A model generated the notes under the pieces. That model searched no databases and was not told the DNA's origin. It saw only the letters and a program-made list of their open reading frames with translations. A DNA stretch of 45,516 nucleotides, taken from sequence record SRR22947727_462, one strand, 5' to 3'. Each line of letters opens with the position of its first letter. Position 1 is the first letter of the stretch. This document shows, one piece after another, positions 19,904 to 25,010 of the stretch. Position numbers and translations under genes: made by a program.

Positions 19904-20707
19904 ATGACAGACCCTGCTTTTGACAAAGCGGATCAGACCATATCACAACCGCGCAATGCGGATCGTGATGACGATACCATAGATTTTGGCTTTCGCACCA
20001 TCCAGCGTGCCGACAAAGCGCGCATGGTGCGCGGCGTATTTGATTCGGTTGCCGATCGTTATGACATTATGAATGATGTGATGAGTGGTGGCATTCACCG
20101 GCTGTGGAAAGCAGCGATGATTGACTGGATGGCACCGCAACCGCATCACAAGCTGATTGATCTTGCCGGCGGCACTGGCGATATCAGTTTGCGGTTTTTG
20201 CGCGGCGGCGGCGGCGGGGCCTGTATTACTGATATCAATCACGCCATGCTTGAGGCGGGGCGTGGGCGGCGTGATTTGCAGCGTCTGGCGCATCGGCTTA
20301 GCTGGTGTGTTGCCAATGCCGAATCACTTCCGTTTGATGATCATAGCGCTGATTTTGTGACCATTGCCTTTGGGTTGCGTAATGTCACTGACCGGCAGGC
20401 CGCCTTGCATGAAGCTTACCGCATTCTCAAACCGGGCGGACGGTTTCTGTGCCTTGAATTTTCGCATGTACAAAGCCGCCCTTTGGCAAAATTATATGAC
20501 AGTTTTTCGTTTAATATTTTGCCGGTCATGGGACAAGTCATCGCTGGTGATGCAGATAGCTATCGCTATCTTGCCGAATCAATCCGCACCTTCCCAAGCA
20601 AGGAAGTGCTTGCCGATATGTTTGCCGAAGCTGGCTTTGCGCAAATCCGGGTGCGCAGCCTGTCTGCGGGTATCGCCTGTATCCATTCTGGCTGGAAGCT
20701 CGATTAA
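19904..20707 (+). CDS. ubiE: Ubiquinone/menaquinone C-methyltransferase
   Basis: VFDSVADRYDIMNDVMSGGIHRLWK, DLAGGTGD, IAFGLRNVT, YRYLAESIR. Confidence 0.95.
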   Translation: MTDPAFDKADQTISQPRNADRDDDTIDFGFRTIQRADKARMVRGVFDSVADRYDIMNDVMSGGIHRLWKAAMIDWMAPQPHHKLIDLAGGTGDISLRFLRGGGGGACITDINHAMLEAGRGRRDLQRLAHRLSWCVANAESLPFDDHSADFVTIAFGLRNVTDRQAALHEAYRILKPGGRFLCLEFSHVQSRPLAKLYDSFSFNILPVMGQVIAGDADSYRYLAESIRTFPSKEVLADMFAEAGFAQIRVRSLSAGIACIHSGWKLD

Positions 20708-22227
20708 TGGCAAAGCGCAGCCTGTCCATGATTCGCGCGCTCATGCGGTTACCGCATATTGCTTGGCATCTTGGGCGTGCAGGGGTTTTGGGGCATGTTG
20801 CCCAGATTACGCTTCTGCCAAGCTGGTTGCGGCATTGCTGCCAGCTTCTTGATAAGGCGGTAAGATCGAAAAGCGCGGTCAATGATGCTGGTGGTGCCTT
20901 ATGTCAGGCTTTGGTCCGGCTCGGGCCGGGCTTTATCAAATTTGGCCAGGCTTTATCAACACGCGCCGATCTGATTGGCCCCGAGCTTGGCCGGTCACTA
21001 ACCATGCTTCAAGACCGTTTACCGCCTTTTGCCGCGGCAAAGGCGCGTCAGATGGTTGCGCAACAGATTGGCCAGCCCATCGAGACCCTATTCAGCCAGT
21101 TTGATGATGCGGCGGTTGCCGCCGCGTCGATTGCGCAGGTGCATCGGGCCACGCTTTGTGACGGGCGTGAGGTGGCGGTGAAACTGCTTCGCCCCGATAT
21201 TGAAAAACATATGCTGGCCGATACGGCGCTTTTCTATTCGCTAGCGCAAATCCTGCAATGGCTGGCACCCGGCCTTCGGCGCCTGCATCTGGTAACAGCG
21301 GTGATACAGTTCAAGCAGCTTTCAGAAATGGAGCTTGATCTGCGCCTCGAAGCGGCGGCGGCAGGACGGCTTGCCGATAATATGCACGATGATGAGGGTA
21401 TTTATGTGCCATGGGTGGATTTGGAAAACAGCTCCAAAGGCATGTTGATCATTGAATGGATCGATGGCATCCGGATTGATGATGTCGACCGCCTGACCAA
21501 GGCTGGCCATGATATTGGAAAAATTACCGAATTTGCGGCGCGCAGCTTTTTCAATCAGGTGTTCCGCGATGGCTATTTTCATGCCGATATGCATCCTGGC
21601 AATATTTTTGTTCGTGCCGATGGCACGCTGGTGCCAATTGATTTTGGCATTATGGGCTATCTCGATTTCCAAGACCGGCTGTTTCTGGCGCGACTGCTCA
21701 GCGCGATGCTTGACCGCAATTATGATATGGTTGCCAAATTACATAAAGAAGCTGGCATGCTTGGCGAGGGGGTTTCGGTCCATCAATTTTCACAATCGGT
21801 TCGCGCGGTTGCTGATCCGGTGATGGGCAAACCGCTTGGCGACGTCTCGCTTGGCGTTGTTCTGGGACAGGTTTTCCAGCTTGCAACCCGCTTTGAAATC
21901 GAAGTACAGCCGCAATATAATCTGTTGCAGAAAACCATGATGATGGCCGAAGGCGTTGCCCGGCAATTAAACCCCAAAGCCGATATGTGGCAATTGGCAC
22001 GGCCAATGGCCGAATCATGGATGCAGCATGAGGCAGGGGTGAAAAAACGCGCCGAACAGCTTGTTGACGAAATGATGCAAATCATCGCACGCGTGCCAAA
22101 ATTGCTCAGCGCTTTTGAAGCCGCACAGCAAAGACCAATTGCGCCGCCACCGCCAACATGGCCCGGGCGGGTTGCTCTGGTTGCGCTTTTGTTTGCCATT
22201 GCAAGTTTTTTCACAAATATTCATTAA
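20707..22227 (+). CDS. ubiB: Ubiquinone biosynthesis kinase-like protein UbiB
   Basis: LGP.FIKFGQALSTRAD, AAASIAQVH, VAVKLLRP, FHADMHPGN, DFGIMG; TAATG overlap with ubiE. Confidence 0.95.
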   Translation: MAKRSLSMIRALMRLPHIAWHLGRAGVLGHVAQITLLPSWLRHCCQLLDKAVRSKSAVNDAGGALCQALVRLGPGFIKFGQALSTRADLIGPELGRSLTMLQDRLPPFAAAKARQMVAQQIGQPIETLFSQFDDAAVAAASIAQVHRATLCDGREVAVKLLRPDIEKHMLADTALFYSLAQILQWLAPGLRRLHLVTAVIQFKQLSEMELDLRLEAAAAGRLADNMHDDEGIYVPWVDLENSSKGMLIIEWIDGIRIDDVDRLTKAGHDIGKITEFAARSFFNQVFRDGYFHADMHPGNIFVRADGTLVPIDFGIMGYLDFQDRLFLARLLSAMLDRNYDMVAKLHKEAGMLGEGVSVHQFSQSVRAVADPVMGKPLGDVSLGVVLGQVFQLATRFEIEVQPQYNLLQKTMMMAEGVARQLNPKADMWQLARPMAESWMQHEAGVKKRAEQLVDEMMQIIARVPKLLSAFEAAQQRPIAPPPPTWPGRVALVALLFAIASFFTNIH

Positions 22228-22311
22228 ATTTTGCTATAAATGGAAACTAAGTGAATTTTAGTGATTTTTTTTATCATAATTCAATGGCAAACAGCGAAAG
22301 TGGCAATTTCT

Positions 22312-23778
22312 GTGAATTTATCGGCAATCATTACCGCATTGGGCGGCCGCCATGCCATCCAGCAGCTTTTGAATGTGGGGCCAAGCGCGATCAGCAACTA
22401 TCTGACCCGTGGTCATTTACCTGAACGCGCCAAACCCATTATCTATGCTGCGCTGACCAAGAAAGGTTATCAGATTCGCGCTGATGATCTTGAAATTCTG
22501 GCTGGCCCCCCTACCACATCATCGCAGCCACTGCATAGTGATACCCATTTCGGCAAGCGAATTTTGCTGATCGTTGCTGGCGGGATCGCTGCCTATAAGG
22601 CCTTGGAAACCGCCCGCCAATTGCAACAGCTTGGCGCGCATGTCACCGGCGTGATGACCGATGGTGCCAAACAATTCATCACCCCTCTTAGCCTTGCCGC
22701 GTTGACTGGTGAGAAATGCTATGACAGTTTGTTTTCACTAACGGACGAAGCCGAAATGGGGCATATCCGGCTGGCGCGATCGGCCGATCTTGTTCTTGTC
22801 GTTCCGGCAACGGCCAATTTTATGGCGCGGGCAAATGCCGGCATTGCCGATGATCTGGCGACAACGATTCTTCTTGCGACCACGGCCAAGGTGGCAATGG
22901 CACCAGCGATGAATCCCGCGATGTGGGCGCATGTGGCAACCAAACATAATTTCGCCAGCCTGCGCCAGCGCGGTGTTCATATGATTGGTCCGGTAAGCGG
23001 CGATACAGCCTGCGGCGAAGAAGGCGAAGGCCGGATGTGCGAACCGGCGGATATTGCCGCAGCCGCAATGCAGCTTATCACCCCGCAAAACATACCCAAT
23101 GCCAAAGATCGTGCCAAAAGCCCGCTTGCAGGCAAACGGATCATTGTCACATCAGGCCCAACAATCGAGCCAATTGACAAGGTGCGCTTTATCGCCAACC
23201 GGTCATCGGGCAAACAGGGACATGCCATTGCCGCAAGCCTTGCCAGCCGCGGCGCGGATGTGATTTTGATTAGTGGGCCAGTCAATGAACCAGCACCGGA
23301 TCAAGTAACCATGGTTCAGGTCACAACCGCCAATGAAATGCTGGCCGCTTGCAAGGCGGCCTTGCCTGCCGATATCGCCATTTGCGCCGCCGCGGTTGCA
23401 GATTGGCGCGTACAGTCAGTATCTGATCAAAAACTGAAAAAACCAGAAGACCCCGATGCTGGCATGATGTTAGCGCTATGCCAGAACCCCGATATTCTAG
23501 CGCATATTTCATCCGCGCCAAACCGGCCAAAATTGGTCATTGGCTTTGCCGCGGAAACCGAAAATCTATTGCAAAATGCCACCAAAAAACGCCAGCGCAA
23601 AGGGTGCGACTGGATCATTGCCAATCAGGTTGGCGGTGATGCTGATCCGGTGTTTGGAAGCGCCTTAAATCAGGCCATGCTGATAAGTGCAAATGGCGTT
23701 GACGAATGGCCGCAAATGCAAAAAACCGATCTTGCCGAAACATTGGCTGATCATATCGAAGCGGAATTGACCAGATGA
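22312..23778 (+). CDS. coaBC: Bifunctional phosphopantothenoylcysteine decarboxylase/synthetase with an extra N-terminal Cro-like HTH domain
   Basis: CoaC: GGIAAYK, MGHIRLAR, PATAN, PAMN, ACGEEGEGRM. CoaB: TSGPT.E.ID.VRFI.N.SSGKQG, AAAVADW, GFAAET. About 80 extra N-terminal residues. Start uncertain (GTG 22300 or 22312). Confidence 0.93.
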   Translation: MNLSAIITALGGRHAIQQLLNVGPSAISNYLTRGHLPERAKPIIYAALTKKGYQIRADDLEILAGPPTTSSQPLHSDTHFGKRILLIVAGGIAAYKALETARQLQQLGAHVTGVMTDGAKQFITPLSLAALTGEKCYDSLFSLTDEAEMGHIRLARSADLVLVVPATANFMARANAGIADDLATTILLATTAKVAMAPAMNPAMWAHVATKHNFASLRQRGVHMIGPVSGDTACGEEGEGRMCEPADIAAAAMQLITPQNIPNAKDRAKSPLAGKRIIVTSGPTIEPIDKVRFIANRSSGKQGHAIAASLASRGADVILISGPVNEPAPDQVTMVQVTTANEMLAACKAALPADIAICAAAVADWRVQSVSDQKLKKPEDPDAGMMLALCQNPDILAHISSAPNRPKLVIGFAAETENLLQNATKKRQRKGCDWIIANQVGGDADPVFGSALNQAMLISANGVDEWPQMQKTDLAETLADHIEAELTR

Positions 23779-24224
23779 ACCAACTTGCAGTGAAATTTCG
23801 GCGGCTAGCCAATGCTGGCGATCTTGCCTTGCCATCATATGCGACAAGCGGGGCTGCCGGAGCTGATCTTGCCGCCGCAATTGACCAGCCAATTTGTCTC
23901 AAACCAAATATGCGCGAGGCCATTCCAACCGGATTTGCCATGGCATTACCAGCAGGTTATGAAGCGCAAATCCGGCCACGATCGGGTCTTGCATTAAAAT
24001 ATGGAATTACCATTGCCAATGCCCCCGGGACAATTGATAGTGATTATCGGGGTGAAATTGCGGTGATTTTGGTCAATAATGGCACTGATGATTTTACCAT
24101 TACCCACGGCATGCGGATTGCGCAGATGGTGATTGCTGCTGTCACCATTATGACACCCGTCGAAGCCGATGATCTTGACGATACCACGCGTGCCGCTGGT
24201 GGTTTTGGCTCAACAGGTTTGTGA
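23775..24224 (+). CDS. dut: dUTP diphosphatase
   Basis: AGADL, RPRSGLA, GTIDSDYRGE, RIAQ, R..GGFGSTG; ATGA overlap with coaBC. Confidence 0.96.
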   Translation: MNQLAVKFRRLANAGDLALPSYATSGAAGADLAAAIDQPICLKPNMREAIPTGFAMALPAGYEAQIRPRSGLALKYGITIANAPGTIDSDYRGEIAVILVNNGTDDFTITHGMRIAQMVIAAVTIMTPVEADDLDDTTRAAGGFGSTGL

Positions 24225-24230
24225 GGCATT

Positions 24231-25010
24231 ATGCTGAGTGATGATGATCTAGAACGCTATGCCCGTCAGGCGATCATGCCGGCAATTGGCGAGGAAGGTC
24301 AGGAACAATTATTGGTGGCGCGGGTGCTTGTTGTTGGTGCTGGCGGGCTTGGCGCGCCGGTGATCATGTATCTTGCCGCTGCCGGTATTGGCACGATCAC
24401 CATTATTGATGATGATCATGTTTCGCGAACCGATTTAAACCGGCAAGTTATTTACAAAGACAGTGATGTTGGCCTGTTGAAATCTCGGCAAGCGGCGATG
24501 GCGGCAAGCGCAATCAATCCGGCAATCCATATCTCGCAGCTTGGCCAAAGGCTCAGTAATGGCAATGTCGAACCATTATTAAAAGCGCATGATGTTGTTG
24601 TTGATTGCACCGATAATGCCGAGGCGCGCTATCTTCTTGGTGATGCGGCGCATGCGGCAGGCAAGCCGCTTGTCTTTGGCGGGGCGGTGCGCATGGAAGG
24701 ACAGGTCTCGGTCTTTCAGAGCAGCGTCAAAGGCCATCTTGGCAGCCCGTGTTATCGATGCGTATTTCCGGCCATGCCCGATGCAAAACAGGCACCGGGC
24801 TGTTCCGAAGCGGGCATTCTTGGGCCTGTTGCCGGATTGGTTGGGACATTGCAGGCGCTTGAAACCATCAAGATTATTCTTGGCGAGCCACGCACCTTAA
24901 CCGGACGGCTTTTGCTGATCGAAGCGGCGGGAAGCGATTTCATGGAAATTCAAACCGTTGCACGGACCGATTGCAGCTGTTGCGGTAATTCATCTGACAC
25001 TACGGATTAA
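24231..25010 (+). CDS. moeB: MoeB/ThiF/HesA family adenylyltransferase
   Basis: ERYARQ, VVGAGGLG, DCTDN, CYRC, C.EAGILG and C-terminal CSCC. Confidence 0.85.
   Translation: MLSDDDLERYARQAIMPAIGEEGQEQLLVARVLVVGAGGLGAPVIMYLAAAGIGTITIIDDDHVSRTDLNRQVIYKDSDVGLLKSRQAAMAASAINPAIHISQLGQRLSNGNVEPLLKAHDVVVDCTDNAEARYLLGDAAHAAGKPLVFGGAVRMEGQVSVFQSSVKGHLGSPCYRCVFPAMPDAKQAPGCSEAGILGPVAGLVGTLQALETIKIILGEPRTLTGRLLLIEAAGSDFMEIQTVARTDCSCCGNSSDTTD

Follow-up and report, generated by a model that had tools for sequence, protein, structure and literature searches.

Why should an enzyme of coenzyme A (CoA) biosynthesis begin with a domain resembling a phage repressor? The question is raised by the coaBC gene in a stretch of DNA of 45,516 nucleotides (nt) from sequence record SRR22947727_462 (the window), where about 81 in-frame residues, counted from GTG 22312, precede the CoaC domain. 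An earlier reading of the letters of the window, hereafter the original prediction, had taken these residues for a Cro-like helix-turn-helix (HTH) domain and the fusion for a candidate autoregulator. We found that this head is conserved as translated protein on every coaBC detected in the order of this organism, that by sequence profile it is of the Cro type, and that repeated TTCACA/TGTGAA boxes, nearly unique to this place in the genomes, co-occur with the fusion. The most likely explanation, with a probability of roughly 0.7, is that the sole CoaBC of the order carries a Cro-type head which binds the boxes between ubiB and coaBC, most likely repressing coaBC-dut-moeB (autogenous control). 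Autogenous control is well supported by computation, because the boxes co-occur with the fusion, are near-unique in the genomes and overlap promoter-like hexamers. The gene is made up of the following parts, with lengths in amino acids (aa):

22312..23778, plus strand: HTH-CoaBC gene, probably 488 aa from GTG 22312; the stop-to-stop frame opens past TGA 22252
22312..22494, plus strand: helix-turn-helix domain of about 61 residues, Cro-type by profile, with the putative recognition helix SAISNY
22495..22554, plus strand: linker rich in Pro, Thr and Ser, variable in length and sequence among relatives
22555..23070, plus strand: CoaC (phosphopantothenoylcysteine decarboxylase) flavoprotein domain (PF02441, P0001 residues 99-270)
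23125..23685, plus strand: CoaB (phosphopantothenate-cysteine ligase) DFP domain (PF04127, P0001 residues 289-475)

The open frame at 22261-23778 on the plus strand encodes a full-length CoaBC. It scored 410.7 bits against TIGR00521 (coaBC_dfp), whose cut-off is 219.7, with frame residues 98-499 covering model positions 3-391/392, and both enzyme domains are present, CoaC at the N-terminal side (PF02441, E 2.2e-28) and CoaB at the C-terminal side (PF04127, E 4e-66). At 22555, residue 99 of P0001, both the CoaC strand KRILLIVAGGIAAYK and the Pfam Flavoprotein match begin, in agreement with the original prediction, which counted about 80 in-frame residues and a linker ahead of the domain. With its full-length match, both domains, the GGIAAYK motif and the linkage to dut, the protein resembles canonical CoaBC (Dfp); a dfp-dut linkage is also found in E. 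coli. At 28 outgroup loci, in contrast, the model match of canonical CoaBC starts at position 1-5, the frames are mostly 400-467 aa long, and there is no head. As coaBC is single-copy in all five genomes checked, HTH-CoaBC should provide both the ligase and the decarboxylase activity. Public records label it plain CoaBC.

For the head we used two alignments, A1 with 21 CoaBC heads and A4, a wider one of CoaBC heads, HisZ heads and standalone relatives. The invariant columns of A1 (L10, G11, G12, L20, V22, G23, S25, A26, S28, N29, Y30, G34 and P37) agree with the pattern I..LGG..A....L.V..SA.S.(W/Y)..RG..P by which the residues had been assigned to small Cro/YdaS-type proteins. Compared with all solved structures, the profiles matched 3bd1_A, a 'Cro protein', at E 1.1e-6 (A1) and 6.3e-10 (A4), and A4 also matched the designed Cro XPH1 (8e-8) and 1rzs_A, 'Regulatory protein cro' (P22 Cro, 0.0018), the outcome that had been expected of a profile check. 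We take 3bd1 to be the Xfaso 1 Cro. Passages of one paper (PMC8404102) present Xfaso 1 as a Cro repressor of transcription. The motif LG....A..LGV..SAISNW.aRG..P of the all-alpha Cro proteins of P22 and Xfaso 1 (1rzs, 3bd1) aligns with the head, which by these profile comparisons is a Cro-type HTH. Cro proteins are standalone, self-dimerising phage repressors of about 60-80 aa, whereas here the domain forms the first 61 residues of a 488-aa enzyme. The BurrH repeat protein, at the top of the first PDB search, was a spurious match built on many weak GG.QALQ.VL repeats and was gone with the broader profile.

An exhaustive profile search returned 628 matches at E <= 1e-3. Among standalone relatives of 60-80 aa, phage HTH regulator families were matched in 19/20 cases, and relatives with 31-55% identity turned up on 26 viral contigs; in a tblastn search at E <= 0.01 no named phage matched the 65-aa head. 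The further suggestion that the head is a domesticated phage Cro thus held at the level of the family and not at that of a named phage.

Conservation was followed in 61 genomes around G001, the nearest genome, which shares 91% of sampled words and served as a stand-in. The 88-residue extension (P0002) matched 55 of them, once (G018) only weakly and in an unrelated 1004-aa frame. The matches in the other 54 were N-terminal, and for 52 the frame was open over 472-515 aa; G057 and G051 accounted for the last two, a fragment at a contig end and a frame broken further down within coaBC. A divergent extension in G040 and G043, found by inspection and with a wider profile, brings the genomes with a head to 56/61, and no coaBC at all was found in the other five assemblies (G011, G018, G019, G042 and G048, 51-93% complete). 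The head therefore stands in frame on every coaBC found in the order, in 56 genomes from four families. One source name puts a relative in 'Candidatus Puniceispirillaceae', and we take the order to be the SAR116 group. The 30 loci from the extension search were examined except for L005, L010, L011 and L019. Among relatives, about 82-125 residues precede GGIAAYK, and many have an ATG directly ahead of the head domain. Linkers range from about 20 to more than 100 residues; in a cluster of 570-603 aa around P0181, whose Flavoprotein match starts at residue 177, the head-CoaC linker is about 110 residues long and Pfam found no extra domain there.

The ratio of nonsynonymous to synonymous substitution (dN/dS; Nei-Gojobori, 15 pairs) was 0.03-0.15 in the HTH domain, like that of the catalytic domains (CoaC 0.03-0.13, CoaB 0.07-0.18). 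In the linker it was near neutral at 0.26-1.5, figures that are rough given the poor linker alignment. The low values of the head, together with conservation across four families, exclude a chance open frame. Contigs of four metatranscriptome-library studies moreover run across the junction of head and CoaC and are free of indels from 22312 to 22560. Matches in related genomes, dN/dS and indel-free contigs together bear out the proposed fusion as conserved, neither a standalone gene nor an artefact.

A codon scan agreed with the original prediction that the extension has no in-frame ATG, the frame upstream of CoaC lacking one back to TGA 22252. In-frame GTG or TTG codons stand at 22261, 22300, 22312, 22339, 22369 and 22375, and the next is TTG 22564; the linker was rightly said to hold none, and the point missed was that TTG 22564 sits inside the first beta-strand, where no Shine-Dalgarno-like sequence precedes it. 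Translation most likely begins at GTG 22312 and yields 488 aa. The invariant LGG follows this codon at a distance of 9 codons, the same as from the ATG of relatives (MNVEQVIDQLGG, MDIDRIIDALGG, MDMDAIIEALGG), and at two loci (L012 and L013) the open frame opens one codon ahead of a TTG at this very position, preceded by GAGGTG. Near-identical proteins in NCBI records are likewise 488 aa long, and a 1-nt deletion (one T) at 22267 in contigs from two of the four studies breaks the frame from GTG 22261. A start at GTG 22300 (492 aa), the commonest metagenome gene call, is the less probable alternative.

Upstream of the head, the gap between ubiB and coaBC measures 32-111 nt in relatives, and TTCACA/TGTGAA boxes are repeated in nearly all of them. 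Strict boxes (TGTGA[AT] or complement), counted in the 140 nt before the head at 27 loci, reached a density of 19.0 per kb, the remainder of these loci having 0.89 per kb, and at least one box was present at 24/27. Upstream of 28 unfused coaBC genes from other alphaproteobacterial families the density was 0.95 per kb and boxes occurred at 4/28 loci, in an outgroup set that was AT-rich upstream in five loci and included one (L117) that looked mis-registered. These putative operators at the gene's own promoter in relatives, at background level where coaBC is unfused, lend substance to the term 'candidate autoregulator'. In alignments the half-sites are fixed while spacers and flanks drift, which argues for a protein site rather than an RNA helix. 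In promoter scans of relatives, the left half of the upstream site coincided with a -35-like hexamer, and a -10-like hexamer came directly before the downstream site. The corresponding elements in the window, with spacings in base pairs (bp), are:

22210..22224, minus strand: box pair A, reading ATGAATATTTGTGAA, within the last ubiB codons; its TTCACA at 22210-22215 is -35-like
22235..22240, plus strand: putative -10-like TATAAA, kept in the closest relatives
22251..22265, plus strand: box pair B, GTGAATTTTAGTGAT, two GTGA(A/T) boxes 10 bp apart as direct repeats, the best-conserved intergenic block in the genus
22311..22316, plus strand: box D, TGTGAA, overlapping the GTG 22312 start codon

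The promoter candidates TTCACA 22210 and TATAAA 22235 are 19 nt apart. We also noted that the last ubiB codons (window 22204-22227; ..SFFTNIH, ..SFFT, ..AIFT) are built on the TTCACA box, and it seems that the box constrains the C-terminus of UbiB, or the reverse. A perfect 12-nt inverted repeat (22190-22201 / 22282-22293) that brackets the ubiB stop and the coaBC leader is probably due to chance; we rejected it because L003 and contigs from other samples show one substitution in each arm without compensation (22192 T>C, 22287 G>A), and because it is absent from other relatives.

The boxes differ in form between families. In genus g1 the perfect GTGAWWTTTWGTGAW occurs only upstream of coaBC in the three genomes G001, G009 and G012; the pattern was derived from these loci, so only its absence elsewhere counts. 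The site of f2, a sister family, is a 15-bp palindrome, TTCACA-N3-TGTGAA. In 5/5 f2 genomes, among them G050, which played no part in deriving the pattern, the sole perfect TTCACANNNTGTGAA of the whole genome stands upstream of coaBC, 18-70 nt before the start codon, with a one-mismatch copy exactly 32 bp further upstream. No CoA regulon appeared among the other one-mismatch sites of f2, which were about as frequent as with a reversed-pattern control, lay within long open frames in 4/6 cases and were never common between genomes. Within the window this palindrome has only two-mismatch matches at chance level. In family f3, which was not used in defining the pattern, the perfect palindrome directly follows the ubiB stop at 4/4 loci fetched. 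Family f4 has a different box, with TGAAAT/ATTTCA palindromes, and a different helix, KPSAISNWKK against GPSAISNY..RG elsewhere, so that the change of box goes with the change of helix. Most of the genomes tested hold the putative operator, conserved at the promoter, in this one place; a genus with a second site is described below.

The same head was found on other proteins. Among the long matches of the profile search, 28 proteins were scanned, of which 10 were CoaBC or fragments, 13 were of the HisZ type (PF13393) and 5 were other proteins. The HisZ-type sources are named 'ATP phosphoribosyltransferase regulatory subunit' and come from Parvibaculales or Rhodobiaceae, with genome records that include the PS1 clade and strain IMCC14465; a third group of HisZ heads belongs to 1.4-Mb genomes with 31-35% guanine plus cytosine (GC). 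HisZ heads and CoaBC heads were aligned by hhalign at a probability of 99.5% (E 3e-22). The HisZ loci (L081-L099, L103-L109) run hisS, spacer, HTH-hisZ, hisG, and the spacer carries two TTCATA-N3-TATGAA palindromes, which make up 2/2, 2/3 and 1/1 of the perfect copies in three genomes. An example is:

L108:1486-2844: HTH-hisZ gene, with palindromes about 20-75 nt upstream

One contig, L114 (G011:C2:33683-35866), starts out with the upstream region of a PS1-type HTH-hisZ and 31 codons from the beginning of the gene, and then passes into unrelated sequence; it looks like a chimera or a contaminant (same-genus genome, assembly contamination 3%).

A further related family is NF046037, the 'carph-isopro domain' of NCBIfam, which exceeded its cut-off in 78/401 Alphaproteobacteria (our tallies over these 401 genomes, for NF046037, A1 and outgroup coaBC, include the unpublished-flagged G101, on which no claim rests). 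Seven of the ten members examined were Mitofilin proteins, one was a carboxyltransferase and two were unassigned. In the Mic60-type members (L033, L039, L043, L050, L051, L055, L061) a long acidic or proline-rich stretch follows the head, and hhalign aligned A1 with the Mic60 heads at 97.9%. The carboxyltransferase, in one genome (L049:1417-3162), has the head family fused N-terminally to an acyl-CoA carboxylase carboxyltransferase (PF01039); L040 contains a 70-aa standalone form of the same subtype as the L049 head. True members of NF046037 read FGGIRPMA..L....TVQGWK and mostly head Mic60/mitofilin, not CoaBC.

How might an HTH head on CoaBC work? Under autogenous control, the heads would bind the repeated TTCACA/TGTGAA boxes between ubiB and coaBC, covering the -35-like hexamer, the stretch just past the -10-like hexamer and the start codon; this binding would limit transcription from the coaBC promoter, and the enzyme would set its own level. 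From these sequences we infer DNA binding and repression rather than activation, with a possible modulation by substrates, by 4'-phosphopantothenoyl-cytidine monophosphate (4'-phosphopantothenoyl-CMP) or by CoA thioesters. Passages of one paper (PMC7794376) describe the mycobacterial CoaBC as a dodecamer built around a CoaC core, in which CoA and acyl-CoAs inhibit the CoaB site. If HTH-CoaBC were a dodecamer too, its flexible linkers would let as many as twelve heads contact two to four boxes, whichever way these face. Several heads per oligomer would therefore explain the multiple boxes and the long linker, and many heads on flexible linkers would also fit the mixture of inverted and direct box arrangements. 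That the phosphopantothenoyl-CMP intermediate might play a BirA-like role is a guess by analogy.

Several observations weigh against autogenous control. The head misses all curated family thresholds: the window domain scored about 13.7-14.8 bits against YdaS_toxin (PF15943; gathering score 30) and 12.6 bits against P22_Cro (PF14549; gathering score 30.2), with HTH_17 also among its sub-threshold Pfam matches, and the matches of A1 members at E <= 0.5 (19/21 to YdaS_toxin and 15/21 to P22_Cro) were all sub-threshold. NF046037 is matched by 21/21 A1 members (best E 3.2e-8), at 28.5-29.6 bits against a cut-off of 38, and the head is thus homologous yet not a member. The metatranscriptome-library contigs are assembled and bear on the frame, not on transcript start, strand or level. 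Three of the 27 loci (L015, L018, L020) have degenerate boxes only, and the genus of the window mostly shows direct repeats where a symmetric Cro dimer would call for a palindrome. The f2 and g1 patterns were partly derived from the loci scored, which leaves G050 and the f3 genomes as the independent cases. TTCACA resembles a -35 hexamer, and part of the box conservation may therefore reflect promoter function. Finally, in genus g15 of family f3, 4/5 genomes have a second perfect TTCACA-N3-TGTGAA in an orthologous spacer of a two-partner secretion (TPS) system, between the gene for a ShlB/POTRA-type transporter (tpsB) and that for a TPS-domain, filamentous-haemagglutinin-like exoprotein (tpsA), which means that the regulon extends beyond CoA genes or that the box is recognised by a different factor. 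These sites are:

L178:2001-2015: second palindrome of g15
L180:2001-2015: second palindrome of g15
G060:C14:4626: second palindrome of g15
G039:C128:2632: second palindrome of g15

The alternative that survives best, although we regard it as unlikely, is the following: the head would be real and conserved but without a role at the coaBC promoter, serving in DNA or nucleoid tethering, assembly or partner contact, while another factor reads the boxes. The palindrome at the secretion locus would suit it, as would the homologous N-terminal domains on the membrane protein Mic60/mitofilin and on the L049 carboxyltransferase, neither of which has a shared upstream palindrome; an operator thus does not accompany the domain family in every case. 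Such a bystander head would not account for boxes that co-occur with the fusion and drop to background upstream of unfused coaBC, for the only perfect palindrome of the genome lying upstream of coaBC throughout f2, or for the joint change of box and helix in f4. The combination of head and palindromes recurs in the HisZ fusions, and searches of the genomes of the order with the extension and the wider profile found no second member of the head's HTH family.

Somewhat less probable again is a head that binds the boxes yet activates the promoter, or tunes it both ways like some CI-type proteins. The upstream site coincides with the -35-like hexamer, and a position overlapping the -35 is also used by class II activators. 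Repression is favoured over this by the second site just past the -10-like hexamer and by the window box that overlaps the start codon, both typical repressor positions, and the nearest solved relatives are Cro repressors.

It is very improbable that the upstream elements act as RNA (leader structure, attenuator or riboswitch) or as mere promoter elements to which the head is unlinked. Palindromes can form hairpins and TTCACA is -35-like, but the RNA fold of 22205-22330 had a z of +0.58, with 139/200 shuffles folding as well, and no Rfam match was found at E <= 1 in 21900-22700. The direct-repeat boxes of the window's genus cannot pair, and half-sites are conserved in sequence without compensatory change.

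Close to refuted is the notion that the extension is not part of the enzyme, translation starting near 22555-22564 behind a chance-open frame or a separate small gene joined by sequencing error: the window extension has no ATG, TTG 22564 is in frame and some metagenome gene calls on long contigs are products of 74-114 aa, but the frame is open and in frame across the 56 genomes, often with an ATG ahead of the head, the head has the low dN/dS given above, the contigs of four studies lack indels, and TTG 22564, with no Shine-Dalgarno-like sequence, would cut the first strand.

Fusions of enzyme and repressor are already known from BirA, NadR and PutA. BirA of E. coli is both biotin protein ligase and repressor of the bio operon, binding through a winged HTH as a dimer to one operator of bioA/bioBFCD, with biotinyl-5'-adenosine monophosphate as a proven corepressor. 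HTH-CoaBC resembles it in having an N-terminal domain of the DNA-binding type on a cofactor-pathway enzyme with an acyl-nucleotide intermediate, and the BirA polypeptide both catalyses and represses; unlike BirA, HTH-CoaBC has a Cro-type head, is expected to be a dodecamer and has its own promoter as predicted target. NadR and PutA likewise join a metabolic enzyme to an N-terminal DNA-binding domain and regulate genes of the pathway in which they work, PutA repressing its own gene; their folds differ from that of the CoaBC head (an HTH of another family and a ribbon-helix-helix), as do their pathways, and none acts on CoA. As in BirA- and PutA-like fusions, domain and enzyme lie in one translated polypeptide.

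Searching the 401 genomes with A1 gave no CoaBC-sized match outside the order. The original prediction knew of no description of this architecture, and none was found in the full-text literature searched, as judged by titles or the start of abstracts; as far as can be told, a Cro-headed CoaBC with its own putative operator is undescribed. Literature searches also returned no paper on 'carph-isopro' or on Mic60 combined with alphaproteobacteria and helix-turn-helix, and for HisZ with helix-turn-helix the passages of one paper make no mention of a head-HisZ fusion. As Pfam misses the head and records say plain CoaBC, the architecture is invisible in databases.

Control of CoA synthesis is commonly attributed to feedback on the enzymes, chiefly on pantothenate kinase, and we are aware of no enzyme of the pathway that doubles as a transcription factor. 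Such an enzyme seems to exist in an abundant ocean lineage. A broader idea, on balance doubtful, is that a reusable Cro-like head replaced separate transcription factors in small-genome marine Alphaproteobacteria, turning oligomeric metabolite-binding proteins into sensor-repressors of their own operons (CoaBC in SAR116; HisZ in PS1/Parvibaculales and in the 1.4-Mb low-GC family). The signal for CoaBC would then be occupancy of the CoaB site by cytidine triphosphate, phosphopantothenate, phosphopantothenoyl-CMP or CoA thioesters, and this would be the first case, analogous to BirA, in which an enzyme of the CoA pathway controls CoA synthesis at the level of transcription. The parallel HisZ fusions suggest a general, economical design of regulation in streamlined genomes, and HTH fusions of this sort offer compact natural enzyme-repressor parts. 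The presence of the same domain family on alphaproteobacterial Mic60, a relative of the mitochondrial cristae organiser, raises a separate question.

The genes around coaBC in the window are:

19904-20707, plus strand: ubiE
20707..22227, plus strand: ubiB, the upstream neighbour in every relative examined
23775..24224, plus strand: dut (dUTPase), whose ATG overlaps the coaBC stop (ATGA)
24231..25010, plus strand: MoeB/ThiF-family adenylyltransferase gene, probably the last gene of the operon

Downstream of coaBC, moeB is found together with dut in families f1 and f2, and without dut in f4. In the window, G001 and G050 dut lies between coaBC and moeB, and from this place it is missing in two f4 genomes (L079, L115).

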